Shown piece by piece: positions 17,641 to 62,848 of a stretch of DNA of 64,000 nucleotides. The stretch is from Eledone cirrhosa (lineage: Eukaryota): the NCBI GenBank assembly GCA_964016885.1, contig OZ024749.1, positions 3,906,001 through 3,970,000 on the forward strand, in the 5' to 3' direction. The stretch's first letter is position 1. Each line of letters begins with the position of its first letter. Position numbers and translations under genes: made by a program. A model generated the notes under the pieces. That model worked only from the letters and a program-made list of their open reading frames with translations, did no database searches and had not been told where the DNA came from.

Positions 17641-17829
17641 AAATGTGTTAAATAAACCTTAACAGCCGTTTGCACACACAATACAATAGAACAGATACGA
17701 ATAAGTAAGGAAAATATGTTCATTCAAAAATATTCCTACTAAATGAATGATTTTCCTACACACACACACACACAGACACAGACACACACACACACACAAT
17801 ATACATATATATTCTCCTCATCTTAACAT

Positions 17830-24624: not shown

Positions 24625-24632
<8 letters not shown>

Positions 24633-25023: not shown

Positions 25024-25071
25024 ATCTTCTATACACAATCATACACACCCGTGTATATTTACCTATCTATA

Positions 25072-25124: not shown

Positions 25125-25330
25125 GTAGGAGGTGAGTTTTATTGTAGTACAATAAAGCAATGCAGATATGTTGATTTAAAACAGCACTATCCACAAGTGT
25201 TTTTAACCTTCATATCATGTCCTCCTATATTATCTAATGAAAACACAAATGTTATTGCATGATGATATTTGTTTTTGAAATGCGCATAATAAAATACATG
25301 GAACTCATTTAACCATCTTTTGATCTTATA
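25125..25330 (+). mobile_element. Diverged copy of the 47987-48396 HHR element, with an inverted tail piece and a mutated core (CTAATGA, 25228-25294)
   Basis: Sequence matches 48143-48310. Its 5' part is the reverse complement of 48350-48396. Flanked by (TA)n. Confidence 0.85.
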
Positions 25331-25333
25331 TAT

Positions 25334-33299: not shown

Positions 33300-36200
33300 G
33301 TGGTGGCGGTTCTGATAGTGTTTGTGGTGATGTCGGCGGTGGTGTTGTTGACGGTGGTGATGTTGGTGGTGGTGGTGTTGGCGGTGGGATGTTGGTGGTG
33401 GTGGTGTTGGCGGTGGGGATGTTGGTGGTGGTGATGTTGGTGGTGGTGGTGTTGGCGGTGGGGATGTTGGTGGTGGTGATGTTGGTGGTGGTGATGTTGG
33501 TGGTGGTGATGTTGGTGGTGGTGGTGTTGGTGGTGGTGATGTTGGTGGTGGTGATGTTGGTGGTGGTGATGTTGGTGGTGGTGATGTTGGTGGTGGTGGT
33601 GTTGGTGGTGGTGGTGTTGGTGGTGGTGATGTTGGTGGTGGTGGTGTTGGTGGTGGTGATGTTGGTGGTGGTGATGTTGGTGGTGGTGATGTTGGTGGTG
33701 GTGATGTTGGTGGTGGTGGTGTTGGTGGTGGTGGTGTTGATGGTGGTGGTGTTGGTGGTGGTGATGTTGGTGGTGGTGATGTTGGTGGTGGTGGTGTTGG
33801 TGGTGGTGATGTTGGTGGTGGTGATGTTGGTGGTGGTGATGTTGGTGGTGGTGATGTTGGTGGTGGTGGTGTTGGTGGTGGTGGTGTTGGTGGTGGTGGT
33901 GTTGGTTGTGGTGGTGTTGGTGGTAGTGGTGTTGGTAGTGGTGATGTTGGTGGTGGTAGTGTTGGTGGGGGTGGTATTGGTGGTGGTGATGTTGGTGGTG
34001 GTGGTGTTGGTGGTGGTGGTGGTGGTGATGTTGGTGGTGGTGATGTTCGTGGTGGTGGTGTTGGTGGTGGTGGTTTTGGTGGTGGTGATGTTGGTGGTGG
34101 TGGTGTTGGTGGTGGTGATGTTGGTGGTGGTGATGTTGGTGGTGGTGGTGTTGGTGGTGGTGATGTTGGTGGTGGTGGTGATGTTGGTGGTGATGTTGGT
34201 GGTGGTGGTGGTGTTGGTGGTGGTGGTGTTGGTGGTGGTGATGTTGGTGGTGATGTTGGTGGTGGTGGTGATGTTGGTGGTGATGTTGGTGGTGGTGGTG
34301 TTGGTGGTGGTGATGTTGGCGGTGGTGATGTTGGTGGTGGTGGTGTTGGTGGTGGTGGTGTTGGTGGTGGTGATGTTGGCGGTGGTGATGTTGGTGGTGG
34401 TGGTGATGGTGGTGGTGATGCTGGTGGTGGTGGTGTTGGTGGTGGTGATGTTGGCGGTGGTGATGTTGGTGGTGGTGGTGTTGGTGGTGGTGATGTTGGT
34501 AGTGGTGATGTTGGTGGTGGTGGTGTTGGTGGTGGTGGTGTTGGCGGTGGTGATGTTGGTGGTGGTGGTGTTGTCGGTGGTGATGTTGGTGGTGGTGGTG
34601 TTGGTGGTGGTGTTGTTGGTGGTGGTGGTGTTGGTGGTGGTGATGTTTGTGGTGGTGGTGTTGGTGGTGGTGGTGTTGGTGGTGGTGGTGTTGGTGGTGG
34701 TGGTGTTGGTGGTGGTGATGTTGGAGGTGGTGGTGTTGGTGGTGGTGGTGTTGGTGGTGGTGGTGTTGGTGGTGGTGGTGTTGTCGGTGGTGATGTTGGT
34801 GGTGGTGGTGTTGGTGGTGGTGTTGTTGGTGGTGGTGTTGGTGGTGGTGATGTTTGTGGTGGTGGTGTTGGTGGTGGTGGTGTTGGTGGTGGTGGTGTTG
34901 GTGGTGGTGATGTTGGAGGTGGTGGTGTTGGTGGTGGTGGTGTTGGTGGTGGTGGTGTTGGTGGTGGTGGTGTTGGTGGTGGTGGTGTTGGTGGTGGTGA
35001 TGTTGGTGGTGGTGGTGTTGGTGGTGGTGGTGTTGGTGGTGGTGGTGTTGGTGGTGGGGATGTTGGTGGTGGTGGTGTTGGTGGAGGTGGTGTTGGTGGT
35101 GGTGGTGTTGGTCGTGGTGGTGTTGGTGGTGGTGATGTTGGTGGTGGTGGTGTTGATGGTGGGGATGTTGGTGGTGGTGGTGTTGGTGGTGGTGGCGTTG
35201 GTGATGGTGGTGTTGGTGGTGGTGATGTTGGAGGTGGTGGTGTTGATGGTGGGGATGTTGGTGGTGGTGGTGTTGGTGGTGGTGGTGTTGGTGGTGGTGA
35301 CGTTGGTGGTGGTGATGTTGGTGGTGGTGGTGTTGGTGGTGGTGGTGTTGGTGGTGGTGATGTTGGCGGTGGTGATGTTGGTGGTGGTGATGTTGGTGGT
35401 GGTGGTGTTGGTGGTGGTGATGTTGGCGGTGGTGATGTTGGTGGTGGTGATGTTGGTGGTGGGGATGTTGGTGGTGGTGATGTTGGTAGTGGTGATGTTG
35501 GCGGTGGTGATGTTGGTGGTGGTGGTGTTGGTGGTGGTGATGTTTACGGTGGTGATGTTGGTGGTGGTGATGTTGGTGGTGGTGGTGTTGGTGGTGGTGG
35601 TGTTTGTGGTGGTGATATTGGTGGTGGTGGTGTTGGTGGTGGTGATGTTTGTGGTGGTGATGTTGGTGGTGGTGATGTTGGCGGTGGTGATGTTGGTGGT
35701 GGTGTTGTTGGTGGTGGTGATGTTGCCGGTGGTGATGTTGGTGGTGGTGATGTTGGTGGTGGTGATGTTGGTGGTGGTGGTGTTGGTGGTGGTGACGTTG
35801 GTGGTGGTGATGTTGGTAGTGGTAATGTTGGCGGTGGTGATGTTGGTGGTGGTGGTGTTGGTGGTGGTGATGTTGGTGGTGGTGATGTTGGTGGTGGTGG
35901 TGTTGGTGGTGGTGATGTTTGTCGTGGTGATGTTGGTGGTGGTGATGTTGGTGGTGGTGATGTTCGCGGTGGTGATGTTGGTGGTGGTGACGTTCGTGGT
36001 GGTGATGTTGGTAGTGGTGATGTTGGCGGTGGTGATGTTGGTGGTGGTGGTGTTGGTGGTGGTGATGTTGGCGGTGGTGATGTTGGTGGTGGTGACGTTG
36101 GTGGTGGGGATGTTGGTAGTGGTGATGTTGGCGGTGGTGATGTTGGTGGTGGTGGTGTTGGTGGTGGTGATGTTGGCGGTGGTGATGTTGGTGGTGGTGA

Positions 36201-36478
36201 TGTTGGTGGTGGTGGTGTTGGTGGTGGTGGTGTTTGTGGTGGTGATGTTGGTGGTGGTGGTGTTGGTGGTGGTGATGTTTGTGGTGGTGATGTTGGTGAT
36301 GGTGATGTTGGTGGTGGTGGTGGTGTTGGTGGTGGTGATGTTGGTGGTGTTGATGTTGGTGGTGGTGATGTTGGTGGTGGTGATGTTGGTGGTGGTGATG
36401 TTGGTGGTGGTGATGTTTGTGGTGGTGATGTTGGTGGTGGTGATGTTGGCGTTGTTTTTGTTTGTGATGATGATGTTG
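33300..36478. repeat. 15-bp minisatellite (GTTGGTGGTGGTG[A/G]T)n, about 210 units
   Basis: Direct reading. It produces the QHHHH, NITTT and MLVVV ORFs. Confidence 0.97.
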
Positions 36479-36479
36479 G

Positions 36480-37179: not shown

Positions 37180-37560
37180 AGTTGGATTGGCAGTATCGGT
37201 AGAGGGTCGGACGCCATGCTTTCCAGCATAGTTACGTCCCTTTATGATCTGAGTTCAAATCCCGCCGAGGTTGACTTTGCCTTTCATCCTTACGGGGTCG
37301 ATAAAATAAAGTACCAGTAATGCACTGGGTAATTTGCTGGCCTTGTGCCTAAAGTAGAAACAATTATTAGTTGGATTGGCAGTATCGGTAGAGGGTCGGA
37401 CGCCATGCTTTGACGCATAAAGTTACGGCCCTTGCCATTCTGAGTTCAAATCCCGACGAGGTTAACTTTGCCTTTCATCCTTACGGGGTCGATAAAATAA
37501 AGTACCAGTAATGTACTGGAATAATTGCTGGCCTTGTGCCAAAAGTAGAAACAATTATTA
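37180..37560 (+). mobile_element. Two head-to-tail full-length tRNA-derived SINEs (37180-37368, 37369-37560)
   Basis: Two consecutive copies with A/B boxes, core and ATT tail. They differ in the head (GTCCCTTTATGATCT vs GGCCCTTGCCATTCT). Confidence 0.93.
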
Positions 37561-37859: not shown

Positions 37860-40758
37860 CAATCGGTGTTTGCATGCCGTTACAAGCTCGTCTTTTTTTT
37901 AGGAGTTGGCCCTTCGTAAACAGCATTTGTAATGTTTCCTCCGAGCATAAGCTACAGGGACGGCGTCCTCCTGTTTTACCATGCTACACAGGTATCAGAC
38001 TATTGGTCCTAGAGATGATTCATCATATTCTAGAGTTCAAAAGCTAGCTAAACTAAAGAGGTGCTGGCCAGCCCGCCCAGCTAGTGGGATGGCGTCATCT
38101 TATGGTTAAAACAGAACGAAGAAAAGGGCCTCAGTACCCCGCGCGTCAATCGGGCCACGCCAAGACGGCGGAGTGCAACCCGCCAGATCGGTCGGAGGTA
38201 TAGGGTTCATCGTAAGCAAGGAATGGGCTTCGAAGGTCGCTTCTTGCCAGTACATATCGTCACGGATTGGTGTACTGAACGTGAACCTCTCAGGCAAGGC
38301 CACCCACAAGATCGTCCTGACCTACTCTCCCACAAGTGCCAGCGACGACGATGAGGTGGAATAATTCTATCGCCAGCTAGACAAAGTGCTAGCTGTGAAG
38401 TCTACTCACACCGTCGTGATGGGAGACTTCAACACAAAGGTCGGACAGGGACGGCAAGGGGAAGAGTATGTCTGAAGATTTGGCCTAGGAGACCGAAATA
38501 AGATAGGAGAGCGTCTGGTCACCATGGCGGAGGCGAGACGGCTCTACATCCGAAACAGCCTATTCAGGAAGAAAAAGGAGAAGAGATGGACCTGAGTATC
38601 GCCAAATTCTGAACACAGAAACGAGATTGACTACATCTTGGTCGACAAGCGACGCATAATACAGGACGTCTACTTCATAACGCAATTCAACACTGGCAGT
38701 GATCATCGTCTGGTGAGGGCGAGGGTCGTCATCGAACGGACGAGGGAGAAGAAGGCTCTGCATTTGGCGTCGAAGGGAGAATGCGCCCGTGTCTTCAACT
38801 AGGCGCAGCTGCAGGAAGCCATTATGCAGGAAAAGTGGCGTCAAGGAGACGGCATTTAACGCTGACTACGGCTCACTGATAAGGAAACTGAAGGAGTGCT
38901 TGAGGAAGGCTAATGGTGTGTGCCCGAGGGAGAGGAAGGGAAGAGTCTCGGAGGAAACTATGAAGTTTCTTAAGAAGAGGAACAATAGGAGGAGGACACC
39001 TGAAGATTACATCGAATATTCCCTTCTCAGCAGAGCGATACGTCAACAACTGAAGAGAGACTTCGAGGCATACCGGATGGAGAAGCTCCTGAAGGTCGCA
39101 GAGGAAAAGAAGAGCCTCAAGAAATGCGAGAGGGACATGGCAATGTACAGATCAGAGGTGGTAACGACCCTGAAAAACACAGCTGGAGTAACGGTCAGCG
39201 ACAAGAGTGAGGTGGAAAATGTTTGCGAAGACTTCTACACCAAGCTCTTCAAGTCTGCCGGGAATGTGCAGCCGTTGCCGTCACTCCAAAAGGAAGAAAA
39301 TGTGCCACCCGTCCTTGTCGTTGAGGTCGAAAGAGCCGTCGGCTTGATGAAAACCGGAGAGGCGCCAGGGAAAGACGGCATAACATCGGAGGTGTTGAAG
39401 TCAGGCGGAGAGCAGCTCTGGAAAATCCTCGCCGAGCGATTCACATACTATCTGGACAAGGGAAGAATACCCTCACAGTTGAAAGAGTCGAATACCATCC
39501 TGCTATACAAGAAGGGTGATAGAGAAGATCTGAAGAACTACCGACCCATATGCCTGCTGTCTCACGTGTACAAGCTGTTCACGAAGATAATCCTGCACAG
39601 CTTATCACGTCATCTGGACGAAGAGTAACCGAGAGAGCAAGCCGGCTTCCGGAGAAACTACAGCACGATGGATCACATATTTACTCTGACACAACTGCTT
39701 GAGAGAGAAAAAGTGTACAAGATACTCTTTGCCTCGCGTTCGTAGACTACGAGAAGGTCTTCCACTGCTGAACTCGCTGCAGAGGCAAGTAGTCGAGGCG
39801 CAATATGTTAAACTGCTCAGGGAGGCGAGTTTCGGATGCACCACCGACATTTGCTCTGATGTCATCACCGTACGAGTGTCGGTCGAGAAGGGAGTGAAGC
39901 AAGGAGAGACGATCTCTCCAAAACTTTTCACCGCGTGTCTCGAGCAGATTATCAGAGGCATTGACGGGCAAGGTGGTGTCAACATCAACGCGAGATACTT
40001 ACCCACCTCCGTCTCGCTGATGACATCGTACTCATCGCTGAAACCACGCATCAGCTTCAGACCATGGTGACGGAGCTCGACATCAAAAGCTCTGCACTAG
40101 GCCTCAAGATAAACCGCATGAAAACGAAGTGCATGCGGTCCGACAACATACCAACAGGTCGAATGGTGGTTGGCGGTGATGAAATAGAGGAGGTGGAGGA
40201 ATACGTCTACGTGGGAGAAGAAGTGAACATGTGCCAAGACATTGAGAGGGAGATCTCGTGGAGAGTAAGGGCTGGATGGAAGGCGTTCAACGGCATAACA
40301 GATGTGCTCAAGTAAATGTTGGACAAGACCACCCGCGCCAAACTCTTCAATAGCACAGTTTTACCTGGCAGTGAAACTTGGGCTACAACGAAGAGAGAAG
40401 AGCAGAGGCTGGTAACGGCTCAAAGAGCCATGGAGAGATCAATGCTAGGAATCTGGAGAGAGCACATCAGGAGCGAAGTCATCAGACAGAAGTCCGGCGT
40501 GAGGGACGTCATCACGGAATATATGCTCAGCAAGTTCAGATGGGCTGGACACGTCGCCCGGTTAACCGATATTCGGTGGACCCACGCATTTGCCGCGAGC
40601 GGAAACGACCAATCAGAAGGCCTCCGGGAGGGTGGAGTTACGATTTTAAAAATACGATTGGGACTACGTGGATGAGGAAAGCACGATTCAGAGAGGAATG
40701 GACGGCGTGCTGTGACCAGTGGCGCTGAATGGACACCCGACAGACTGGTTTTCAAGGT
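37860..40758 (+). mobile_element. RTE-clade non-LTR retrotransposon (APE endonuclease + RT), pseudogenised
   Basis: APE motifs GGIGFIV, YSPTS, MGDFNTKVG, NEIDYIL, SDHRLV. RT motifs APGKDGI, KNYRPICLL, EQAGFR, GVKQGETISPKLF, LADDIV. C-terminal KFRWAGHVARLTD. Stops and frameshifts. Confidence 0.95.
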
Positions 40759-40788: not shown

Positions 40789-40879
<91 letters not shown>

Positions 40880-41830
40880 AAGGCCCAACTGTGGCATATG
40901 CATAAATCTAATAGAAGGTTCAACATTCCATTTTAAACAAGGACAACATTTCAGTGTTAAACACAACTTTACATGTACATCTGAAAACCTAATCTATGTG
41001 TTGACTTCCTCAGGTTGTTAAGAGCACTACATAGGACAGACAAAAAACAGCCTCCGACAACGTATGACCGTCCATAAATCACGTTTTAAAATACAGGAAT
41101 ACAGAAACATTTCGCTTAGTGAACATATCGCCAATTGAGCACCCAACCGACTTCCAAACTTTAAAAGTTTCCCCATTTACAGACCACGCTACTTTCATTC
41201 ATCGTACCAATAATGAAACGTATTTCATTAACAAATTCCAACCTCTACTTAATGCACTAAACTTCGGATTAAACTAAAACTGGAATGAACAATGAAACAT
41301 TTACAAATACCTATGTCTCTCTATAGAATAACCTCCCATACACCCTACATAATCATTTTTCTTAAATAAATTAAATATCATCCAGCATTTCTCTCCCACA
41401 CTGAATTACCTCCCCCTGCATATTAACTCACTAAAAAGGGAAATCATATCAAACCCCAGTCCACCATTTGCCTCCACCATGGATCGACTAAGCACTCTTG
41501 CTATGTTAACACATTTTGATCTGCATATCTCCAAGAACTATACCTGTAAATAACATTATTTTTTCTTCCGCATTGCCTTATTATGCTCCACATTACGATA
41601 CTATTTTTTTTCTTTTTTTTTTCACTTCATAAACCTTGTTTATAAATAACATTATTCTCTCTGCACCATTTCTTTAACCTGTCCAACACCACCATTCTAC
41701 ACCAATACATATTATTCTCATTTGATAATGCATAAAAATGCTGAATCGGGTAATAGACAATTATTAAATATATAAATAAATAAATAAATGCCATTGTTAA
41801 TTAATAAATAAATCAACTAATGCCTTAACA
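40880..41830 (+). mobile_element. Penelope-like element 3' fragment: GIY-YIG endonuclease remnant + C-rich UTR + decayed U3:A8 HHR (41716-41757)
   Basis: [34 protein letters not shown]...ETYFINKFQPLLN, followed by TCTcAT-TTGATAA-tGCATaaaaATGCt-GAAtcgggTA^ATAGA. Confidence 0.8.
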
Positions 41831-45819: not shown

Positions 45820-45874
45820 ACTGCTATATATATTTCAGCGACAGCCATCTTTGGCTGTGACCTCTTCAGGCAGT
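45820..45874 (-). ncRNA. Type I hammerhead ribozyme
   Basis: Minus strand: ACTGC-CTGAAGA-ggtcACAGCCAaagaTGGCTGTcgct-GAAA-TATATA-TA^GCAGT, ~50 nt from a (TA)n tract. Confidence 0.9.
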
Positions 45875-45984: not shown

Positions 45985-46172
45985 TAAGCTATCGCCGTAA
46001 TTTGACTAAAGAAATTAAAGAAATGATTTAGCTTGATAGAAAAAGATGAGTATTGACGTACATATACGTCAATACTCACCCTCTTCCATTTCTCCGAGGG
46101 TTCTTAACCCCAATATCAGGCTAAATAAATAATTTCTTTAATTTCTTCAGTCAAAATACGGCGATAGCTTAC
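45985..46172. repeat. Imperfect inverted repeat with inner hairpin GAGTATTGACGTA..TACGTCAATACTC
   Basis: AAGCTATCGCCGTA..AAGAAATTAAAGAAAT and its reverse complement. A related sequence occurs at ~58260-58325. Confidence 0.75.
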
Positions 46173-46270: not shown

Positions 46271-46641
46271 GGGGTAACAAATAATAGATAAATGCAGTCC
46301 ACTTAGGTATAGTCCAGTTATGGTATTCCAGGTAGTGGATGATATCAACGCTTGGCTTGGTTTGACTCAACAAGGCGTTTTCATAGTGATGCTGCGGGTA
46401 TGCTGTAATTCCTATGTTGTAAACACTTGGAGTAATAATAAATCAGGAAAGAAGGTTGACATGGTTTGCTATACAAAAAAGATTTTTAATCTCATAGCTG
46501 ACAATTGTTTCTCTGATATTTATCGTCATCCGTACGCCCGGCCGACTAACTCACTCGATATGCAAATTAGGCTACTCACCCGTTAATATGCATAAGTAAA
46601 GTATATACTTTCAAACGTTCAATCATCTGACAGTAAGGTAT

Positions 46642-46684
46642 ACGATGCTGAAGATAGCTAATAAGCCTGAAACAAGTTCATCGT
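46642..46684 (+). ncRNA. Minimal type I hammerhead (family X, copy 1; element ~46525-46870)
   Basis: ACGATG-CTGAAGA-tagctaataagcct-GAAAC-AA-GTT^CATCGT. Confidence 0.85.
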
Positions 46685-46870
46685 TCCCTTGTCAGTCTTG
46701 AACAAAAGGGCAACGATGGTTGCCGAACACTGTACTGGTTAATTCGGGATGTTTGTTTACAAACAAACCGAACATTATAATAAATGTTCGGTAAACCCAA
46801 AGGTACATATATATATATATATATGTGTGCATGTTTGTATTTATATACATACTACTTTACGTATGTACGT

Positions 46871-46928
<58 letters not shown>

Positions 46929-47071
46929 ATAATAATAAATTTGAAGACTAAAATCCAAAGAGGGCTCGATAAGGATAAATATATCAAATATATAAGAACG
47001 GTAGAGCAAATATTTATTAAAATATTTTATATATATATATATATCTGTGTGTGTGTCTATATATGTATATG

Positions 47072-47107
<36 letters not shown>

Positions 47108-47132
47108 TTAGTGTGTGTGTCTATATATATAG

Positions 47133-47288
47133 AGCAATTAGCCACTACATTACTGGTACTTTATTTTATCGACCCCGTAAAGATGAAAGGCAAAGTTAAC
47201 CTCGGCGGGATTTGAACTTAGATCGTAAAGGGACGTAACTATGCTAGAAATCATGGCGTCCAACCCTCTACCGATACTGCCAATTCAC
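47133..47288 (-). mobile_element. tRNA-derived SINE (a further 3' fragment lies at 47696-47744)
   Basis: Reverse complement of the consensus. Confidence 0.9.
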
Positions 47289-47340
47289 ATAGAATAATGA
47301 AATACAAAGTAGTTCAGATGTTAACATTCCTTTATTAAAA

Positions 47341-47420
47341 GACCTTTATATATATTTCGATAATAGAAGAAGCCACGTAATTCCGTGTTATATCCAGTGC
47401 CATGATCTCATCAGACAGCT
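47341..47420 (-). ncRNA. Type I hammerhead-like motif with weak stem I
   Basis: Minus strand: gctgt-CTGATGA-GAT...ATC-GAAA-TATATA-TA^aaggt. Confidence 0.55.
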
Positions 47421-47825
47421 TCTTACATAATAAAGTTACTTTTATTAGGCAATTCAAGTTCGAAGTGACAAAGGAACGGACTAACAGGATGTTTTTGAAG
47501 CGATTGTCCATTCTCCTATGAGCTTCAATCAGTTCTTATGGCTGTGCGCATGCGTAAAACAGCACATTCCCCAAACACCACAGCAGCTTTGAACCAGACT
47601 GAACCAGTATCAGAGTTAAAAATACATTATGAAGAGAGAAGAAACATTTAGATATAATTAGTAATAAAATGTATCATACCTAAACTATATATAACTGTTT
47701 CTACTTTAGGCACAAGGCCAGCAATTACCCAGTAAATTACTGGTAAACGGAAGAGATGTAGTAAGTACCAGGTGGACCATAACGCACCAAAGTACTCAAT
47801 ACTTAGTGTAGTAGAGTGGGTAATA

Positions 47826-47938
47826 GGAACGAGTAGGACCCGACGGCTGAGCTCAAGCCGTTTCGACGGCTAATTCTGGACAGTCCAGAATTAGCCGTCG
47901 AAACGGCTTCAGCTCAGCCGTGGGGGTTCTGCTCGTTC

Positions 47939-47939
<1 letters not shown>
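47826..47939. repeat. Fold-back palindrome (~56-bp arms, 1-nt loop) made from the 3' half of an HHR
   Basis: ...GACGGCTAATTCTGGAC-A-GTCCAGAATTAGCCGTC-GAAACGGCTtcAGCTCAGCCGT... Confidence 0.9.
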
Positions 47940-47986
<47 letters not shown>

Positions 47987-47994
<8 letters not shown>

Positions 47995-48310
47995 AGATCA
48001 AAAGATGGTTAAAGGAGTTCCATATATTTTATTATGCGCATTTCAAAAACAAACATCATCAAGCAATAATATTTGTGTTTTCATCAGATAAAACAGGAGA
48101 ACATGATATGAAGGCTAAAAAACACTTGTTGATAGTGCAGTTTTAAATCAACATAACTGCACTATCAACAAGTGTTTTTTAGCCTTCATATCATGTTCTC
48201 CTGTTTTATCTGATGAAAACACAAATATTATTGCTTGATGATGTTTGTTTTTGAAATGCGCATAATAAAATATATGGAACTCCTTTAACCATCTTTTGAT
48301 CTTATATTAT
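47987..48310. repeat. Perfect fold-back palindrome (~156-bp arms, 12-nt loop) plus an 86-bp tail to 48396
   Basis: 47987-48142 is the reverse complement of 48155-48310. Flanked by (TA)n. Confidence 0.97.
48204..48270 (+). ncRNA. Type I hammerhead ribozyme (mirror copy on the - strand at 48027-48093)
   Basis: TTTTAT-CTGATGA-AAACacAAATATTATT gctt GATGATGTTTGTTTtt-GAAA-TGCGCA-TA^ATAAAA. Confidence 0.9.
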
Positions 48311-48421
48311 GCATACTCCAGTCCCACAAACTGTAGAGTGCTTCTTATCCGATATCTGCATTGCTTTATTGTACTACAATAAAACTCACCTCCTACATAT
48401 ATATATATATATATATATATA

Positions 48422-49648
48422 CAGGGTGGGTCATTATTTCTGTTACACTGTCTGAAATCAATTTAAAAATACATTATGTTGCTAATATTACTAATAGGTT
48501 TGTATCAAATCCATGCACTATAACCATATTAACTATTTTTCAGAACATTACTCCATTAACAATGTGCAATGTCCATAGAATTGGAAAGAAAGTTCATAAT
48601 AGAGAAGCATGGAAAAGGCCTGACTCCACCCTAGATATTTAAACTGAGAAACATTCTCAAGATGAATAGAATGTTGATCAAACGGACAATCGATCGATTT
48701 AAGGAAACTTCCTCGACCAAAGACAGACCTCAATCCGGACGCCCTCGCCCCTCAAGAACGCCAAAACTCGTTAAAAGTGTGAGGGAAAAAATAAAGCGTA
48801 ATCAAAGAAGGTCCATGAGAAAACGGCAGAAGCAGAAACATCGCCGAGAACTATGCGGAGAATATGTCGAGATGATCTGGGGATGTCACCATATAAGTTT
48901 CAAAAGAGGCAGCTTCTTTCTCCTGCCACAATTGAAAATATTCTCTCCAGAAGTAAACTGTTATTGAACCGTATCATGGATGGCACCGAGTATTTGCAAA
49001 AAGTCTCAAATCAATTCCTTCAAGTGTAGGAAAAGTGTTCAGAACACAGAAACCAGTATCAGTGATGGTTTGGGCAGCCATTTCTGAAATAGAGAAGTCT
49101 CCTCTGATTGTTGTGCCTCAAGGAGTTAAAATTAACAAAGAACTTTGCATAAAGGATATTTTGGAAGGAACACTGATGCCATGGTGCACATCTGTTTATG
49201 GCGATGATATATGGACTCTCCAACAAGATGGAGCGACGAACCACACTGCTCGCGTAACACATCAGTGGTGTAGAGACCATTGTCCTGCATGGATCAGTAA
49301 GGAAGAGTGGCCGCCCACATCACCAGATCTCAATTCTCGATATTTATTTATGGTTAATTCTTGAGAGTGAAGATTGCTCTACTCCTAGCCAAAATATTGA
49401 AACTCTAAAATCAAAACTGATTAAAGTATGGGAGAATATACCCATGGAAACTGTTCGTGCAGCCATCGAAGACTTTCCTAGAAGACTTCGAGCAGTAGTG
49501 AGAGCTAGAAGAAAGCATTTCGAATACATTTGTGTGCAGTTGTTTAACAGTATATTACTTACTATTTGGTGATGTCAGATCTTGAAATAAATGTTTTTTC
49601 AAGAACTATTTGCATTTTATTTTGTATCAGTTTTTATGCTACACCCAG
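48422..49648 (+). mobile_element. Tc1/mariner DD37D (maT-type) DNA transposon, decayed and internally deleted
   Basis: TA-flanked diverged TIRs CAGGGTG../..CACCCAG. DRPQSGRPR AT-hook, SVMVWAAIS, QQDGATNH, WPPTSPDLN. Spacing from QQD to the post-SPDLN position is about 37 aa. Confidence 0.9.
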
Positions 49649-49744
49649 TATATATATAGTTGGTGTGGGATGCTTAACGCGTTCGTAAGCGGTTGACCGT
49701 TTGAGTATCGAGCTCTTACAGAGCAGAGTATGATATCACATAAG

Positions 49745-49806
49745 AAACGGAGAATCAGAGTTGCGACGAATAAAATGTATTCGTCGGAACACTGATTCTC
49801 CGTTTA
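49745..49806. repeat. Short imperfect palindrome
   Basis: AAACGGAGAATCAG..CGACGAATA aaatg TATTCGTCG..CTGATTCTCCGTTT. Confidence 0.8.
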
Positions 49807-50088
49807 GTATGTTATATATATATATCAATGGAAAAGAATGAAACGAAATTTCATTTCTCACTCTTAGTACGGTTGATACCTAAATATAAGTATGTATACG
49901 TACATACATATATGTGTACAGACGTACAGTAGTATGTATATTTATACATACATGCACACATATATATATGTATGTATTGGTTTACCGGACATTTATTATA
50001 ATGTTCGGTTTGCTTGTAAACAAACAGTCCGAATTACGCCATACAGTGGTTGGCAACCATCGCCCTTTTTTTCAACACTGACACAGGA

Positions 50089-50131
50089 ACGATGTACTAG
50101 TTTCAACCTTATTAGCTATCATCAGCATCGT
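50089..50131 (-). ncRNA. Minimal type I hammerhead (family X, copy 2; element ~49828-50375 with internal inversion)
   Basis: Minus strand: ACGATG-CTGATGA-tagctaataaggtt-GAAAC-TA-GTA^CATCGT. Confidence 0.87.
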
Positions 50132-50543
50132 ATACCTTTCTGTCAGATGATTGAACGTTTAAAAGTCTTTACTTTCCGTATGCATATTAACGGCTGAGCA
50201 GCCTAATTTGGCGTAATTCGGGCTGTTTGTTTACAAACAAACCGAGCATTATAATAAATGTTCGGTAACCCATACTTACATATATATATACGTGTGCATG
50301 TATGTATATATATATACATACTACTGTACGTCTGTACACATATATGTATGTACGTATACATACTTATATTTATATACATATATAGGGAGTGTAACGTGGA
50401 GTTACTAGAGATGTATGTAGGATGTATGCTGATGTAGGTATATATGATGACGTGTGTATGTTGTGGGTTCGTCTTAGCGAGAAGTGTTTAGACGGGGTCC
50501 GTATTTGTTAATAAAGTGAGATTCCTTGCTGGTGCAATAATAA

Positions 50544-50577
<34 letters not shown>

Positions 50578-50798
50578 ATATATATACATCTATATTGTTT
50601 TGCTAATAGACTATATAAATACATTAACTATATGGAGGTATGAAAGGCACAGGACTGAAAACCAACCCAAACCAAACATTGAGTATGTTCTGTTATTATT
50701 TTTGGCAATATTATAACAATATGACCCTCCCCAAGTAAACAATATGTATATATATATATATATATATATATGTACAGTGAGTGTGTGTGTGTCTGTGT

Positions 50799-50856
<58 letters not shown>

Positions 50857-51527
50857 TAGATAGATAGATAGATGGATAGATAGATAGATAGATACATAGA
50901 TAGATAGATAGATTGACTGATTGATTGATATGAGACTATTTCTTCTTGGTGGTGTTCAGTACGATTATTATTGGGTCGAATCTTCGAACATTTGTCGGGC
51001 CTCTTATTCCTGGATGTGTTCACGGTACCATACTAGCTTCAAGTAGGCCACCATATTATCTCTTCTAAGGAAATAAAGTTCTTATTCATAACGCCTCTAG
51101 CAAATGTACATCAACGAATAAGACAATGAAAATAACAGAATCATCCAATCAAAACGTAATGTCGATCTGAATGCTATACAAAGGAGATATTGAATTTTAG
51201 TTAATCTTATATTTCCAGTGTCCCCTTACTGATTTAACTTCAGAATATATGCCATATTATATATTTCTTTGCAAGTAAAAGTAGAACTCTGTGATATTAT
51301 TAAATAAACATTCGTATTATTAGATAAACATCCACGAACACAAAGATATGCAACATTGCTTGTACATACACAAGATAGTTTATCATATAGGTAGATATAT
51401 AGAAGAATCTGTAGAAACTGTCTATACATATTAAACGATGGAATATGATTTAACTATACCACCAGTCCATCTTGTCACTATACGTTTCGATTTAAAATGA
51501 ATTTGTTTCTAATCCCGAATACATCTT

Positions 51528-51595
<68 letters not shown>

Positions 51596-51609
51596 TCTCT
51601 CTCGCTTTC

Positions 51610-51644
<35 letters not shown>

Positions 51645-51704
51645 TTCCCTCTCTCTTACATATATATGTATATGTGTATGTATGTGTGTGTATACCTAAA
51701 CATA

Positions 51705-51740
<36 letters not shown>

Positions 51741-52462
51741 ATAAAGTATATATCCCTGTCGGGAACAATTATGAATAGCACCAGTTCATAATTTGAACTC
51801 GGGAATTTTATATAGAGAGTCCTATGATTATGGAATTATGAAAGACATCCGACGAGGCAAAGCAGTGCAACTCTAGCGTATGGGACATCGAACGAAATAG
51901 TAGTAGCTGCTTTGCAATTCTACAAAAGTGAAAAGACTAAATAGCAATCATCTAATAACGATGTCAATGCATGTGTGTTGTAATGTGATACTCTTACACC
52001 CTACTTGTTAATCGATTGACTGGATTAACTCTGCTTTAATTTAAGAAGATTCACGTCTCCAATCAATAATTATGCTGAAGATAAGGCTTGCTACTGAGGC
52101 AAAATAGCAGAGGCTACCAGCATTCTAGATATGCATGGAGAAAGGGCAAATGATGTCAATTTGTATGCCAACACGTGGAGAAACGGCAAATAGTGTCAAT
52201 TTATACGTCAACACGCCAAAGCCTTGCTGCATTCTCTTGAACATAAAATAAAAAATAAAATAAACTCATCTAACATATAATAACTCATTCGTAGAGTGAA
52301 GGTGAAACATCGTATCACTAATTCACTAACATTAGAAGATATTAAGACAATATTCCCTGGTCTTACAGTGGAATGTTGTACGGGCGTATGGGCTGGTTAC
52401 ACGAGGATTGGTGGTAATTACATCAGCATATCACGGTTCATCAGCATAAGCTGTACGAGATG

Positions 52463-52522
<60 letters not shown>

Positions 52523-52543
52523 TTATATTATATATATATATAT

Positions 52544-52607
<64 letters not shown>

Positions 52608-53463
52608 TTTTTTCCGTTGTGTTGTAATATAAATATTACACACAGTAGATTATCAGCTCACGTAGAGTTTGCTCGACGGTTCCAGTTGTAGTTCCAAAAG
52701 TAATCCGGAGAAAAATAGAAAGATTTGAATGGATACAGTTTAGTTGAAAGGAATTTATTGACACGTGTTTCTATAACAGTTACATAACCTAAAACAGCTA
52801 TCTACAAACTTTTAGTTATGCAGACATTCAATATTTCAATGTTATTGTTTACTGTCATTTCATCAGAATAATATTACTGAGGACCTATTTAGTTTTTATA
52901 GAGAATATTAGGAGGAAGGGGTGAAGTTGTTAGAAGAATAGTTGAAGGAGTGGTTTTTCGATAGCAGTGAGAATTCTTGGTGGCAGTGATTAATTAGATT
53001 CCCATCTGTTGTTTTGACATTTTTTATAGAATATATTATTGGTTATTTTTCTAAATCTATAGAAGGATTAGAGATAGTAAAGATATGCGTGGTTGGTTTT
53101 GTGTTTGCACTTAACATTCGGACTTAAATTTTTCTTTCAAGTGTACGTATTCTTTCACCCACGCATTCACACACAAATATATTTGCACACCTCTACAAAA
53201 TACATATACTCACAATTCACATATTCATACTTACATATATATACACATGCATACACATATATATACACACATGTATTCATGTACATACATACGCGCTCAT
53301 GTGTATACATTTTCATACTCAACTTATCTTTATATATACACACGTATAGACACACACATATATACATACATACTCTAGTCCATGTGTACACACATACACA
53401 TACATACACATCCATATACACATACATACATACACATATATATATATACATATATACATATAC

Positions 53464-53494
<31 letters not shown>

Positions 53495-53517
53495 CACATA
53501 CACATATACACACATAT

Positions 53518-53550
<33 letters not shown>

Positions 53551-53819
53551 AGCACTTTAATACATGAATACACTTACATCTAACTATACACATCAAACAT
53601 ATATATATATTTACTTATTTATATACATTTTCACATATATATACATACTTATGGACGTTTTTAGACACATTCATTATCGCATATTTGTACCTATTCTCAT
53701 CAGCATATCTTTTCATTATTAGTATGGTAATTTAAGGTTATTAATATATGTTGAGAAGAGATTGTTTTTATATTTTTCTAACTAGATTAAGGTTTATATA
53801 GTTGGGGGATGTCCCTCTT

Positions 53820-54240
53820 TTATGTAATATTCTGCTTGTAGTGGGAAAAAAGGGTTTTAGTTCTGTGACGGCAGAATAATGTTCGTTCAATTCTGTTATT
53901 CAGCAGTTTCTTCTTGTGTGTGATTATGTAATAAATCTCAAGATTACACAATTTGCAGAAATTTTGGCTCCTGGAAAAGCTCTGGGTTTTAGCTAATTTT
54001 TCCCATTTTAGGGTAAACTTTTGATTGCTATCCCTGAGCGTCCAAGCTTTTTCTGCTAAAGTTGTTACATTTCTTTGGCTCTGGTGTTTTATTGAGTAAG
54101 AATGCCTATACAATCGAGATTTAAACGATGTTGCCGTTGATCCCACGTAATACCACTCGTTGCCTCCGGATTTAATGGTACACTTATAAATAATATTTTT
54201 TTCCAGGCAGTTATTGCCGAGGGGGCAGTTGTCAGGATAG
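53820..54240 (-). pseudogene. 5'-truncated PLE GIY-YIG endonuclease coding fragment
   Basis: CPLGNNCLEKNIIYKCTI...YYVGSTATSFKSRLYRH...CKLCNLE...LLNNRIE...CRH: IIY/YVG motif, catalytic R, E and N. The frame is open but lacks its own start and RT. Confidence 0.88.
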
Positions 54241-54586
54241 GCAGTTGTCAGGACGCTCAGGGATAGCAATCAAAAGTTTACCCTAAAATGGGAAAAATTA
54301 GCTAAAACCCAGAGCTTTTCCAGGAGCCAAAATTTCTGCAAATTGTGTAATCTTGAGATTTATTACATAATCACACACAAGAAGAAACTGCTGAATAACA
54401 GAATTGAACGAACATTATTCTGCCGTCACAGAACTAAAACCCTTTTTTCCCACTACAAGCAGAATATTACATAAAAGAGGGACATCCCCCAACTATATAA
54501 ACCTTAATCTAGTTAGAAAAATATAAAAACAATCTCTTCTCAACATATATTAATAACCTTAAATTACCATACTAATAATGAAAAGA

Positions 54587-54644
54587 TATGCTGATGAGAA
54601 TAGGTACAAATATGCGATAATGAATGTGTCTAAAAACGTCCATA
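54587..54644 (+). ncRNA. Degenerate second HHR-like motif in the PLE UTR (mirror 53650-53707 -)
   Basis: TATG-CTGATGA-gaaTAGGTACA...TGTGTCTA-aaaac-GTC^CATA. G12 appears as A. Confidence 0.45.
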
Positions 54645-54743
54645 AGTATGTATATATATGTGAAAATGTATATAAATAAGTAAATATATATATATGTTTG
54701 ATGTGTATAGTTAGATGTAAGTGTATTCATGTATTAAAGTGCT

Positions 54744-54776
<33 letters not shown>

Positions 54777-54799
54777 ATATGTGTGTATATGTGTATGTG

Positions 54800-54830
<31 letters not shown>

Positions 54831-55422
54831 GTATATGTATATATGTATATATATATATGTGTATGTATGTATGTGTATATGGATGTGTATGTATGTGTAT
54901 GTGTGTACACATGGACTAGAGTATGTATGTATATATGTGTGTGTCTATACGTGTGTACATATAAAGATAAGTTGAGTATGAAAATGTATACACATGAGCG
55001 CGTATGTATGTACATGAATACATGTGTGTATATATATGTGTATGCATGTGTATATATATGTAAGTATGAATATGTGAATTGTGAGTATATGTATTTTGTA
55101 GAGGTGTGCAAATATATTTGTGTGTGAATGCGTGGGTGAAAGAATACGTACACTTGAAAGAAAAATTTAAGTCCGAATGTTAAGTGCAAACACAAAACCA
55201 ACCACGCATATCTTTACTATCTCTAATCCTTCTATAGATTTAGAAAAATAACCAATAATATATTCTATAAAAAATGTCAAAACAACAGATGGGAATCTAA
55301 TTAATCACTGCCACCAAGAATTCTCACTGCTATCGAAAAACCACTCCTTCAACTATTCTTCTAACAACTTCACCCCTTCCTCCTAATATTCTCTATAAAA
55401 ACTAAATAGGTCCTCAGTAATA

Positions 55423-55539
55423 TTATTCTGATGAAATGACAGTAAACAATAACATTGAAATATTGAATGTCTGCATAACTAAAAGTTTGTAGATAGCTGT
55501 TTTAGGTTATGTAACTGTTATAGAAACACGTGTCAATAA
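55423..55539 (+). ncRNA. Type I hammerhead ribozyme with 88-nt branched stem II (mirror copy on the - strand at 52755-52871)
   Basis: TTATT-CTGATGA-aATGACAGT...ACTGTTATa-GAAAC-ACGT-GTC^AATAA. Confidence 0.88.
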
Positions 55540-55573
55540 ATTCCTTTCAACTAAACTGTATCCATTCAAATCT

Positions 55574-55641
<68 letters not shown>

Positions 55642-55984
55642 GGTGTAGGTTTTATCTTGTGATTCTGTGGACATGTTTTATGATATATAACTCTGATTAT
55701 TTAATTTATTAAATGTTCATTGAACAACAAATTGACCCGTTGCAAAACCCGTATATGTATATATATGTATATATATATGTAAACTTTTATATGTAATAAT
55801 ATCCCATTAGGTTGAGATACAAATTTGGCTGCATTGTGCTGTGCTTTCTAGCAAAAAAGCCACCAGCCGTAAGCAACTACCACACCCCTTCCAACCTGAC
55901 CGCTACTACGTCACGATTCTTAGCCATTTTGAATGAATTCTTGGCGCGATCACTTTGGAAAATTTAGTGTCTAGATCAGAGCAA

Positions 55985-56071
55985 ATCTCCTGATGAATCC
56001 GATGCTCGAGTTACATAATTATTACATAATTATTGGAAATCTCAAAATGCGGACGAAACCATGGTAGAGAT
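55985..56071 (+). ncRNA. Type I hammerhead ribozyme
   Basis: ATCTC-CTGATGA-aTCCG...CGGAc-GAAAC-CATG-GTA^GAGAT. The stem II loop holds an 11-bp duplication (TTACATAATTA). Confidence 0.87.
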
Positions 56072-56223
56072 ATTTAAATGTATTCTATTTTCTCCTAGTT
56101 TATTTTACACATAATTCTGTTTAATTGACTGTATCTGGACGATTACGCTGTCGAAATATTCGATAAATATTCCACTGCGGCCGACGTGAAGGGCTAATTT
56201 CGGTTATTTGTTGGAGATTTCTT

Positions 56224-56948
56224 CATGTTAACGGCTGAGCAGCCCAATTTGCATATCGAGTGGATTAATCGGCCGGGTGCACCGTAAACGATAAACGGAA
56301 AAAATGAAACGAAATTTAATGTCCCACTCTTAGTACGGCTGTTACTTAAATATAAGTATGTACACGTACATACATATGTGTATAGAGACGTACAGAAGTA
56401 TGTATATATATATATATATATACATATATGCACATATATATATATATATGTACGTATGGAATCACCGAACATTTATTATAATGCTCGGTGTGTTTGTAAA
56501 CAATGAAATATCGTTTCATTTTTCCTGTTTATCGTTTTCGGTGCACCCGGCCGATTAACCCACTCGATATGCAAATTGTGCTACTCAGCCGTTAACATGC
56601 ATAAGGTAAGTATATACGTTCAACAATCTGGCAGGAAGGTATACGTTGCTGACGATAGCTAATACGCTTGAAACTAATACAGCGTTCCTTTGTCAGTGTT
56701 GAACAAACGAGCAACGATGGTTGCTGGACGCTACGGCTTAATACGGGATGTTTGTTTACAAACACACCGATCATTATAATAACTGTTCGGTGAATCCATA
56801 CGTACATATATATATGTGTGCATGTATGTATGTATATATATATACATACTACTGTACGTCTGTATACATATATGTATGTATGTGACCTACTTATATTTAA
56901 GTAACAGCCATACTAAGAGTGGGAAATGAAATTCCGTTTCATTTTTCC

Positions 56949-56955
<7 letters not shown>
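56224..56955. mobile_element. Family X retrozyme-like element: inverted part (56224-56502) plus a ~423-nt terminally redundant unit (56505-56955)
   Basis: CGTTTCATTTTTCC occurs at 56512 and 56935. The inverted part reads through the unit end into the unit start. Homologous to 46525-46870 and 49828-50375. Confidence 0.8.
56643..56685 (+). ncRNA. Minimal type I hammerhead (family X, copy 3)
   Basis: ACGTTG-CTGACGA-tAGCtaatacGCTt-GAAAC-TAA-TA^CAGCGT. Confidence 0.82.
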
Positions 56956-57002: not shown

Positions 57003-57144
57003 GTACGTACTTAGTATAAATATATAACTGAAATGGACACATATATTTACATTGTATGGTGACACTATCAACTAATAGTGTCTCCGTATAGTGTAAATAT
57101 ATTCTCTGTGTGCCCTTTCAGGTATATATTTCTACTAAGTACGT
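57003..57144. repeat. Imperfect palindrome (~65-bp arms)
   Basis: GTACTTAGTAtAAATATATA..GACACTAT caacta ATAGTGTC..TATATATTTcTACTAAGTAC. Confidence 0.8.
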
Positions 57145-59263: not shown

Positions 59264-62200
59264 AAGAAGAAGTCCTTGAGGCTTTCTACACTGCCATGTA
59301 CTACCCATCAAATACATCGAATACAGAGCAAACATATATCAACTGGAAAAAGAAACATCCCGAAAACAGAGGCTATATTGACAGTAACAAACTAGCCAAT
59401 ATACGAAGAAATATTGTAAGAAAAAAGTTACTAACTGATATAGAAATTGATTAGATCAAGCTAGTAGCACAAAGTCAGCGAAGGGAAAATGAAGCATCTG
59501 TCAGTGAAAACGAGGTAAACTGTAACACTTCGAATCCCAGAGTTGGGGCGGAATCACTGGCAACAGAACAAATTAAAGAAAGGAGCGAAAAAGTGGAGGG
59601 AGTGCATGCTCAGGATGAAACTCCAAATGAAAATAATGAGATCGTAAATGATAAAGAAATGAATGATTAACTTGCCAACTTGAAGGATGAAATTATGATC
59701 GAATGGATGAAAATGAAAGAATCTGACATGGGGGAACGAGACACCCTCCCTAAGATCCAGAACTCCAAACAGAACCAAAAGATAATACACAAGACTAACA
59801 TAATTCTCAAAAACATTATCATCACAAACAAACTAAGCATTACTGACTTAAATCATCTCTATTATGCATCGGCTAAAGTCACCACTCACTTATGTGGAGT
59901 GAAGATGAAAAAACAAAGGAATTCCCACAAGAAATCTACTTGGCAAGATAACATCAATCGCCAAATAAACCTTCTCCGATCTGACATAGAAATTTTAACA
60001 AACTATAAAGTAGGTGAACATGTTAAACAAACTAAACTTAGAAAATTGAAAAAAAAGTACAGTATAAGATCAACATGTGACATAGACATGCTGATAGAAA
60101 CAATCAAGCAAAAAGTGTCGGCCAAAGCTGCTCGTATAAGGCGCTTTGAAAAACGATCTAGATTCTATAAGGACAATAATATGTTCAAAAACAACCAAAG
60201 AAACTTCTACAGAAAAATTGGTAAGTCAACAATAACTGCTAAATCAATACCACCCAAGGAGGAAGTGCAAGAATTCTGGGAAAAGATCTGGGCCGAAGAA
60301 AAAGTTCATAACATACATGCCCCATGGATAGACAGGCAAATGAAAGAAACAGCTCACCTTGAAGAACAAACATGGGAAAATATAACAGTTGAACAGCTGC
60401 GCTTGGCTCTAAGAAAAACCAGCAAATGGAAATCCCCAGGAAAAGACAAAATACAAAACTTTTGGATAAATGCCTTCACAGAGTCTCATGAGCTGTTAGC
60501 CCAACTTTACAATGAAATAGTTAAGGAGCCAGAAAAGATACCATCATGGCTAGTTAACGGCATTACATTCCTGCTACCGAAGAATGATGAGACAAACAAT
60601 CCCAAAAATTACAGACCGATAACCTGCTTGACCACAATGTATAAAATTTTAACATCAGTCCTAACTCAATACACATATGACCACCTGATAACAAATGACC
60701 TATTTCCCATTGAGCAGAAAGGGTGTAAACGAGGCTCATATGGCTGTAAGTATCAGCTTCTGGTTAACAAAATGATACTGGAAGATTGTCATAATAGACA
60801 CAAAAATCTATCGATTGCTTGGATAGATTATAAAAAAGCATTTGATAGTTTGCCACACAGTTGGATTGAAAAATGTTTAGAGATTTTCAAAATATCCCCC
60901 GTTATCAGGAGGTTTTTGTCATTCAGTATGAGGACATGGAGAACGACACTCCTTTTGAATAGTGAAACAAAATTACTGGAAGCTGGAGAAGTTAACATTA
61001 ATTGTGGAATTTTTCAGGGTGACTCTTTATCACCGCTTTTATTCTGCATCGCACTTATACCATTAAGTAAAATGCTCAATGAAACAAAACATGGATATAG
61101 AGTCGATGACAAAACCATTAATCACCTGTTCTACATGGATGACCTGAAACTATTTGCAAAAAATGATGAACAATTGCAAGGGCTATTATCCACTGTAAAG
61201 CAGTTCAGTGATGACATTAAAATGGAGTTTGGACTGGATAAATGCGCCAAAGCAACGTTCACCAGAGGAAAGCTGCTGAAGAGTTCAGACATTAATCTTG
61301 ATCGGGGGAACGTGATAAGAGAGCTTGATCAAGAACAAACTTACAAATATCTAGGTGTTTGTGAAGGAGACGGAATCAAGCACTCGACAATGAGGGAAAG
61401 GATAAGGAAGGAATGTTACCGCAGAGTCAGAGCAATCTTAAGAACGGAATTGAATGCAAGGAATAGGATCGATGCCATAAACACACTTGCCATACCAGTA
61501 GTAACCTACAGTTACAATATCATCAACTGGTCAAGCACAGAGATCCGTAGGCTCGATACAAAAATCCGAAAATTCTTAACCATGCACAGAATGCATCACC
61601 CTAAGGCAGACATAGATAGAATATATCTCCCTAGGAAAGAAGGAGGACGTGGGTTAATCCAGTTAGACATTGCGTTGAAAACTGCAACAATTGGATTATC
61701 CACATATCTAAGGGAATCACATGATTGGATGATCAAACTCGTTTTGAAACACGAAAGCACCAAAAGATCATATTCCATTACAAAAGATGCACAAAGATAC
61801 AGTAATGGACTACAAATTTCAGAAGTCCCATTTACTGCTGAAATGGAAAACACAGAAAAAGCAAAGCAGGTAAAAGTAACTGCAAAGAAAGAACTGCTAC
61901 AGAAACTGGCTAAGAAATGGCAAGAAAAGCCTCTGTATGGAAAATACCCAGAGCGAGCTAACAATCCTGATGTTGACAAAACTTTAACCCATCAGTGGTT
62001 GGCATCCTCTGGACTGAAATCGGAGACTGAAGGACTGATTATATCCGCACAAGATCAGTGTCTGCCAACAAAAAATTACCAAGCCAACATAATAAAAAAT
62101 GGGTGCAGCCCATTATGCCGTGTATGCAAAAAACAACCAGAGACCATTGACCATATAATTTGAATGTGCAGTCCTATAGCTCCAACCGAATACCTAAACA

Positions 62201-62848
62201 GGCATGACAGAGCTGCACAATACATACATTGGATAATGTGTAAGCATTTTGACCTGCCCCATCAAAAGAATTGGTGGGAGCATCAACCACCTCCCATACT
62301 TGAAAAAGATCACATCTCAATCTTGTGGAACTTTAGCATCCAAACAGACCGAAAAATAGATGCAAATAGACCTGATATAATATTGAAGGACTTTCAAAGG
62401 AGGGTATGCCTGCTAATTGATATGTCTGTTCCAATAGACAAGAATGTATCTATAAAAACATTTGAAAAATTGAGCAAGTATAAGGACCTGGAGATAGAAA
62501 TTGGAAAAATGTGGAAATTGAGAACTAAAACAATACCAGTGGTTGTAGGCGCTCTGGGAATGATACCTAAGGGGTCTAACGACTACTTATCGCAAATCCC
62601 AGGAAACCCGCGTATAGGAGAAATACAAAAGATAGTACTAATGGGAACTGCCCATATACTAAGGAAGATCATGTCAATATAAGTACATCACAAGTCTAAA
62701 CACTAAGGATGCATGTGTGAATATGTGTGTTCTTTCTTGAACATGGCGGACCTTGTTGTCTCTTGAGGTCACTGGTTGTGACTTGGTGATAACTCGTATA
62801 AACATAAAGCAAGATAAATGCAAATAATAATAATAATAATAATAATAA
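59264..62848 (+). mobile_element. R4/Dong-clade non-LTR retrotransposon (RT + CCHC knuckle + restriction-like endonuclease), 5'-truncated, in (TAA)n
   Basis: One frame from 59269 to 62682 with three in-frame stops (59452, 59668, 62161). Motifs KNYRPITCL, WIDYKKAFDS, GIFQGDSLSPLLF, YMDDLKL, CRVC..ETIDHII*MC, RHD, NRPDII..LIDMSVP..KYKDL. (TAA)n on both sides, the known Dong target. Confidence 0.96.

Follow-up and report, generated by a model that had tools for sequence, protein, structure and literature searches.

Hammerhead retrozymes are known from animals, with Penelope-like elements (PLEs) proposed as their mobilizers on the basis of co-occurrence and of homology to the pseudo-long terminal repeats (pLTRs) of PLEs. 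The accessible sections of one study (bioRxiv 10.64898/2026.07.22.740005) propose the PLE machinery in this role and describe solo monomers together with PLE co-occurrence; a link between PLEs and retrozymes is also suggested in the main text of another (PMC7229834). For PLEs themselves, PMC8557442 describes Hydra and Naiad elements as targeting (TA)n and as bearing, at the 5' end, a 5'-truncated copy in inverted orientation, together with a tail of 30–40 bp that often occurs at just one of the two ends; a short palindromic helix III is connected with dimeric cleavage in the accessible part of PMC4209133. Here we describe family X, a hammerhead-bearing repeat found at three loci (A, B and C) in a 64-kb stretch of the genome of the cephalopod Eledone cirrhosa (contig OZ024749.1, positions 3,906,001 to 3,970,000; hereafter the window, to whose 64 kb all negative results obtained within it apply). 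Family X is probably a retrozyme-type, non-coding unit whose copies were inserted by a PLE enzyme, the template being an RNA of more than unit length.

The three loci were recovered by a BLAST search of the window with 56505–56955 and lie at 46519 (+), 50210 (−) and 56505 (+), respectively (Table 1). A first-pass annotation of this DNA had already placed three copies and their core motifs correctly, although it missed the inverted arm of copy B and the insertion footprint described below. Unit positions are counted from 56512 (position 1) along the 423-nt unit of copy C: CGTTTCATTTTTCC is present at both 56512 and 56935, 423 nt apart, and the terminal redundancy of this copy, correctly recognized in the first pass, spans 27–28 nt. 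Because C lacks two blocks, of 8 and 2 nt, that occur in both A and B, the length of ~423 nt holds for copy C, whereas the family unit is ~430 nt. The main arms differ from each other at 25–37 of 220 gap-free unique columns. The C unit has a GC content of 0.381 and, as previously claimed, no coding capacity: when it is circularized, the longest open reading frame (ORF) starting with ATG comprises 45 codons on the strand of the ribozyme and 71 on the opposite one. The window was found to contain no tandem array of the unit, the longest arm being 1.06 units.

Table 1. Arms, hammerhead motifs and the neighbouring Hydra-like remnant, in window coordinates
Feature	Position	Strand	Remarks
Copy A, single arm	46519..46887	+	unit ~17 to 378-388; 3' end merges into (TA)n
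Copy A, hammerhead motif	46642..46684	+	cut predicted at 46678/46679; A.C mismatch in stem II; palindrome of helix III disrupted; GUU triplet
Copy B, main arm	49824..50210	-	unit 61-443; (TA)n at the 3' end, which falls on the base where the C main arm also ends
Copy B, hammerhead motif	50089..50131	-	predicted cut 50095/50094; palindromic helix III intact; triplet GUA; stem II G.G mismatch
Copy B, inverted arm	50210..50372	+	unit 224-388; 5'-to-5' with main arm, 1 shared base; outer end TA-rich
Copy C, inverted arm	56224..56503	-	unit 241-511 (= 241-423, then 1-88)
Copy C, main arm	56505..56954	+	unit -6 to 443, a length of 450 nt or 1.06 units; (AT)24 follows
Copy C, terminal redundancy, 5' copy	56505..56532	+	
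Copy C, terminal redundancy, 3' copy	56928..56954	+	2 substitutions and 1 indel relative to the 5' copy
Copy C, hammerhead motif	56643..56685	+	predicted cut 56679/56680 (unit 168/169); stem II U.C and helix III C.A mismatches; triplet AUA
Hydra-like PLE remnant (not family X)	52607..55579		head-to-head arms; 108-nt one-sided tail; (TA)n at both ends

The most informative feature of family X is its insertion footprint, which is of the PLE type. At two of the three loci, B and C, an inverted and 5'-truncated arm lies beside the 5' end of the main arm, and the junctions show the two arms joined head-to-head, 5' to 5', with 1–2 nt shared. The last 55 nt of the main arm of B (the tail) are absent from its inverted arm. 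Arms group by locus at 6/6 two-versus-two informative sites (TA-rich columns left out), with 8/108 and 6/109 differences between arms of the same locus compared with 11–15 of 108–109 between loci; each locus therefore looks like one event. The resulting divergence of sister arms (5.5–7.4%) would imply ~3–4% decay per arm since insertion, enough for the pair-breaking changes seen in the ribozymes. The 3' ends recur at two sites: the main arms of B and C stop at the same base (unit position 443), and copy A and the inverted arm of B stop ~55 nt earlier at ~388, within ~10 nt of each other. These sites lie 275 and 220 nt downstream of the predicted cut site, and the rough joint chance of such coincidence, calculated post hoc, is 8e-4. 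Four of the five arm 3' ends abut (TA)n, and no target-site duplication is apparent: flanking repeats of at least 6 nt are absent from both A and C, and B has just microsatellite-like 6-mers away from the ends. Classical twin priming of the L1 type on one RNA was considered and set aside as a poor fit, because the arms overlap or are offset by ~95 nt and the arms of other local elements overlap fully.

The same geometry is displayed by a young PLE remnant in the immediate neighbourhood, whose two arms differ by one mismatch in 1,329 nt (99.9% identity; Table 1). It contains a GIY-YIG-type frame at 53820–54269 (−) that has 3,231 relatives at E values up to 0.001 in a full HMMER search, whereas a word-indexed search with this endonuclease frame returned no match. 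The frame aligns to the C-terminus of a 720-aa reverse transcriptase (RT) protein (36% over 139 aa; pairwise E 1e-27), in which RT motifs and the Hydra hallmarks RWK and DKT are seen. As Pfam gave no match in three PLE-like frames and named RT or GIY-YIG in none of six long Hydra-like matches, the assignment to the Hydra clade is based on motifs read by eye. Hammerhead-like motifs with G at position 17 are located at 52866 (−) and 55428 (+) in this remnant. Two other hammerhead families, at 24631–25070 and 47995–48396, also occur as head-to-head pairs; their helix III is palindromic, their tails are one-sided and their ends lie in (TA)n. Neither these families nor the Hydra-like remnant share detectable sequence with family X. 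Because this geometry recurs in the Hydra-like remnant and in both of these families, a PLE is favoured as the mobilizer of family X, with the Hydra-like clade, judged by geometry, the best local candidate.

Further PLE and hammerhead sequences are present in the window, which holds at least six unrelated hammerhead families in total. A broken PLE RT remnant extends over ~16579–17711 (−); the best named match of its frame at 16582–17085 (−) is from Octopus bimaculoides (80%, E 7e-69), and many of the 87 matches to this frame are annotated with RT and GIY-YIG domains. A separate remnant of the endonuclease end of a PLE of another clade lies at ~40878–41253 (+). The family at 47995–48396 has a second copy at 25128–25331, and single hammerhead motifs with a perfectly palindromic helix III occur at 55990 (+), where the element reaches the outer end of the C inverted arm, and at 45869 (−).

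In footprint and in unit, family X can be compared with two described classes of element. With endonuclease-containing (EN+) PLEs, among them those of the Hydra clade and Poseidon PAc (as described in the accessible sections of PMC8557442 and PMC11167929), it shares the inverted 5'-truncated arm at the 5' end, the one-sided tail, two 3' end sites downstream of the hammerhead, (TA)n targets and the lack of a clear target-site duplication. Unlike these elements, it has no RT/GIY-YIG ORF, its unit closes on itself and its tail is 55 rather than 30–40 nt long. It is not an autonomous PLE: there is no ORF, and reading on beyond the tail leads back to where the unit begins. With animal non-LTR retrozymes, as portrayed in the main text of PMC7229834, it shares a non-coding unit within the range of 150–450 bp, a GC content of 38% and a canonical type I hammerhead with a weak helix III; its predicted circle is self-paired and leaves helix I formed, although such pairing is not specific; a U·U at the base of helix II is also found in axolotl Rtz353/HHR_Amex2 (same source). 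By contrast with the coral, mussel and axolotl retrozymes, family X is represented in the window by dispersed arms of 0.9–1.1 units with pair-breaking changes, and by no array. Its inverted arms are a further distinction, as the word ‘inverted’ does not occur in the main text of PMC7229834. Judged from sequence, family X nevertheless displays the testable characteristics of a non-LTR retrozyme.

The main arms of all three copies have a type I hammerhead layout: a 6-bp helix I extended past an internal loop, CUGANGA, a U·U mismatch, a 4-bp helix II, GAAA, a 6-nt helix III and U16.1–H17. The core boxes read CTGAAGA at 46648 (+), CTGATGA at 50119–50125 (−) and CTGACGA at 56649 (+), and core positions are intact (11/11) in 3/3 copies. 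Stem I has 6/6 pairs in each copy: A and B share ACGATG/CATCGT, and in C, which reads ACGTTG/CAGCGT, one pair is altered on both sides (A–U to U·G); helix I is present in the predicted folds of A, B and C with pair probabilities of 0.46–1.0. The first-pass annotation was therefore right that this stem stays paired. Its picture of variation confined to neutral positions applies within the 7-nt box, in which N7 alone varies, and breaks down across the 43-nt ribozyme: nine columns vary (one N7, two from the double change in helix I, one H17 and five that break pairs), and 9/43 is the background rate (47/220). The helix II mismatch is different in each copy, and helix III, a perfect palindrome in B, is broken in A and C. 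Each of the three copies has one ribozyme with such pair-breaking changes, and the copies are likely to be dead.

Within the window, a 22-nt degenerate ribozyme pattern allowing up to three mismatches matched exactly A, B and C, and had no match in any of 100 shuffles; prokaryotic genomes yielded 0 exact matches to it. A strict hammerhead descriptor detected seven motifs in the window, compared with a mean of 0.03 in 30 shuffles; C was among the seven, and A and B were recovered by a relaxed version. By virtue of its short, palindromic helix III, the family X ribozyme would act mainly as a dimer, by analogy with minimal PLE hammerheads, for which the accessible part of PMC4209133 predicts that a palindromic helix III needs a dimer, and also notes pairs of motifs on opposite strands. 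Differences from that type include the absence of the long helix II (7–8 bp), of the short helix I and of the G10.1–C11.1 pair. An alternative hairpin that would block the ribozyme was discarded as not conserved (its probability is 0.35 in A but 0 in the other two copies).

The arms also reveal which RNAs could have served as the template. They can be assembled into a single circular map, in which no link of the unit lacks a contiguous arm and no ORF body separates the units. Read from 56503 to 56224, the C inverted arm runs continuously over unit positions 241–423–88 (253/276 aligned bases identical), so that the continuity across the unit end reported in the first pass is borne out; together with the 27–28-nt redundancy of the C main arm, this means that the 3' end site is followed by the beginning of the unit itself rather than by an ORF. 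The unit thus closes on itself, and the template was either circular or at least ~1.2 units long. All three main arms cross the predicted cut site and none of the five arms ends there, which excludes a cut linear monomer unless the enzyme jumped between templates each time. The template is therefore an uncut tandem RNA or a ligated circle.

The earlier suggestion of a circular or multimeric template accordingly stands as a disjunction, without preference for the circle. The inverted arms, including that of C, do not cross the cut and lie inside a cleavage-to-cleavage monomer (169–591), so that they provide no argument for circularity, and the two redundant stretches of C show a level of difference similar to that between arms, which is compatible with either form. 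The test that had been proposed, permuted copy ends as a sign of a circle, fails because 3' ends are fixed, clustering at ~388 and 443; as ends at two sites are expected from internal initiation by a PLE on either template, end mapping does not discriminate a circle from tandem RNA.

These observations suggest how family X may have been inserted. A source locus with at least 1.2 units would be transcribed, and a PLE protein would bind the RNA and make a double-strand cut in a target that is AT-rich or (TA)n. Each broken end could then prime reverse transcription, which would start at internal positions that are fixed, 220 and 275 nt downstream of the cut site. Both cDNAs would halt at variable points and be joined 5' to 5' at 1–2 nt of microhomology, so that a main arm is left beside an inverted one, with a tail on one side. 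The template would most likely be an uncleaved tandem transcript, and not the cut linear monomer; the ribozyme, mainly as a dimer, would cut multimers to monomers, and ligation into circles may follow. Family X is thus likely to be a non-autonomous hammerhead retrozyme.

Several observations weigh against this interpretation. Family X has no sequence similarity to either PLE remnant within the window and no pLTR homology there, so that the PLE partner is deduced from geometry only. Both facts that close the unit come from locus C, whereas A and B by themselves fit a linear element of 17–443, and neither a multi-unit source locus nor an array is seen in the window. The outer end of the C inverted arm (unit position 88; one of the five ends) fits neither recurring site, is not in (TA)n and adjoins the hammerhead element at 55990. 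The 55-nt tail exceeds the 30–40 nt reported, although that of the local Hydra-like remnant is 108 nt. As for the ribozyme, Rfam at gathering thresholds gave 0 matches to the motif, its best match being Hammerhead_HH9 on copy B (16.8 bits, E 0.072, threshold 52), and among the matches listed (150 of 156) in an E-value scan of 45.5–57.5 kb there was no ribozyme, nearly all being sub-threshold microRNA matches to TA repeats and palindromes. The invariance of the core (0/11 columns varying, compared with 47/209 elsewhere) is not significant with three copies (one-sided Fisher p 0.066).

The nearest alternative keeps the element and the PLE enzyme and changes the template, to a covalently closed ~430-nt circle formed when a ribozyme-cut monomer is sealed by a host ligase. 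Contiguous arms covering all unit links, main arms that all cross the cut site and a C main arm of just over one round agree with this, and circles are abundant or dominant forms of the coral, mussel and axolotl retrozymes and have been proposed as RT templates (PMC7229834, main text). The circularized C unit is also 65% paired, with helix I formed and a z score of −4.6 (both strands, 50 shuffles each). This stability was rejected as a sign of circularity for want of specificity: an equal score is obtained for the reverse strand, and 3/16 control windows score lower. No feature of this DNA distinguishes uncleaved tandem RNA from a circle, 1.06 units is the most that any arm reaches, and uncut RNA is the main substrate in the one PLE that has been reconstituted, which makes the circle a possible but rather doubtful template. 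Somewhat less probable still is a linear, pLTR-only non-autonomous PLE with a unit of ~17–21 to 443, without a retrozyme RNA cycle, whose apparent closure at C would be a PLE partial tandem or a template jump. Copy A begins at unit position 17, no more than 4 nt from the position (20) where B and C end, a coincidence that may mark a natural unit boundary, and A and B alone fit such an element; partial tandems are, moreover, a standard PLE product. However, the C inverted arm begins 68 nt past this boundary and reads back over it, so that its template held the junction or an extra jump took place, and the layout of the ribozyme is that of canonical retrozymes, with an extended 6-bp helix I and a helix II of 4 bp, and not that of the minimal PLE type with a long helix II.

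Far less plausible is that the copies derive from a longer autonomous PLE as pieces of its 3' part, comprising pLTR and tail. Inserts of 5'-truncated PLEs do look like these copies, and the nearby Hydra-like remnant is one of them, but the sole arm that reads past the tail enters the unit's own start and not an ORF, ORFs on the ribozyme strand do not exceed 45 codons, and tblastn of the 87 PLE-type matches against the window detected remnants only at ~16.6–17.7 kb and 40.9–41.3 kb. That the inversions are fold-back artefacts of assembly or amplification, and the hammerheads chance resemblances, is hardly credible: the window is rich in palindromes, one with 99.9% identical arms, and Rfam has no match at threshold, yet the arms of family X are 5.5–7.4% different and asymmetric, and strict-descriptor hammerheads outnumber those in shuffles (7 versus a mean of 0.03).

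The window as a whole is AT-rich animal DNA with dinucleotide microsatellites and transposon remnants throughout. Fold-back palindromes with no hammerhead detected in them (12836–12978, 19670–20016, 45985–46171, 47826–47939, 49733–49817 and 57005–57144) are possibly further PLE-type insertions. An array of period 15 nt at 33324–36479 (~211 copies; several open frames, Pro/Thr-rich on the minus strand) looks like either a mucin-like exon or a minisatellite. Other repeats include a minisatellite at 7624–9216 (23-nt unit, ~70 copies), three tandem copies of a 348-nt unit at 18039–19061, and a dispersed repeat of ~190 nt resembling a short interspersed nuclear element, with at least nine copies (16530, 25570, 26320, 30680, 32730, 37180–37560, 45380, 47130). 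Broken frames at 13729–16361, 38717–40675, 48635–49572 and 59671–62682 resemble what we take, from their motifs, to be Helitron, RTE-type long interspersed nuclear elements and Tc1/mariner transposase. The octamer-like motif at 56569–56576, possibly similar to a promoter motif of newt satellite 2, was not used further: no supporting paper was found, and there are ten such motifs in the window (6.6 expected), a number reached in 15/100 shuffles.

No cephalopod retrozyme was found among the records listed in literature searches, although subscription papers, Repbase or supplements, including that of PMC7229834, could hold one or inverted insertions; ribozymes are not mentioned in the accessible portion of an Octopus vulgaris repeat annotation (PMC13282606). 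Family X is likely to be a cephalopod example of the non-LTR retrozyme or non-autonomous PLE kind. It displays neither a new mechanism nor a host function. What it adds is evidence of a different kind: a retrozyme-like unit that is closed and yet bears the signature of PLE integration, next to a genuine PLE remnant that bears this signature as well. The case made in bioRxiv 10.64898/2026.07.22.740005 is drawn mainly from vertebrates and from co-occurrence and pLTR homology, and its accessible text contains neither ‘tail’ nor ‘mollus-’, with ‘inverted’ in a reference only; family X, by contrast, contributes an insertion footprint. It allows an inexpensive genome-wide test of whether circles or uncut multimers serve as template, and if PLEs do copy the ligated circle, mapping of ends across the genome would provide direct footprint evidence on both the mobilizer of retrozymes and the form of RNA that it uses.

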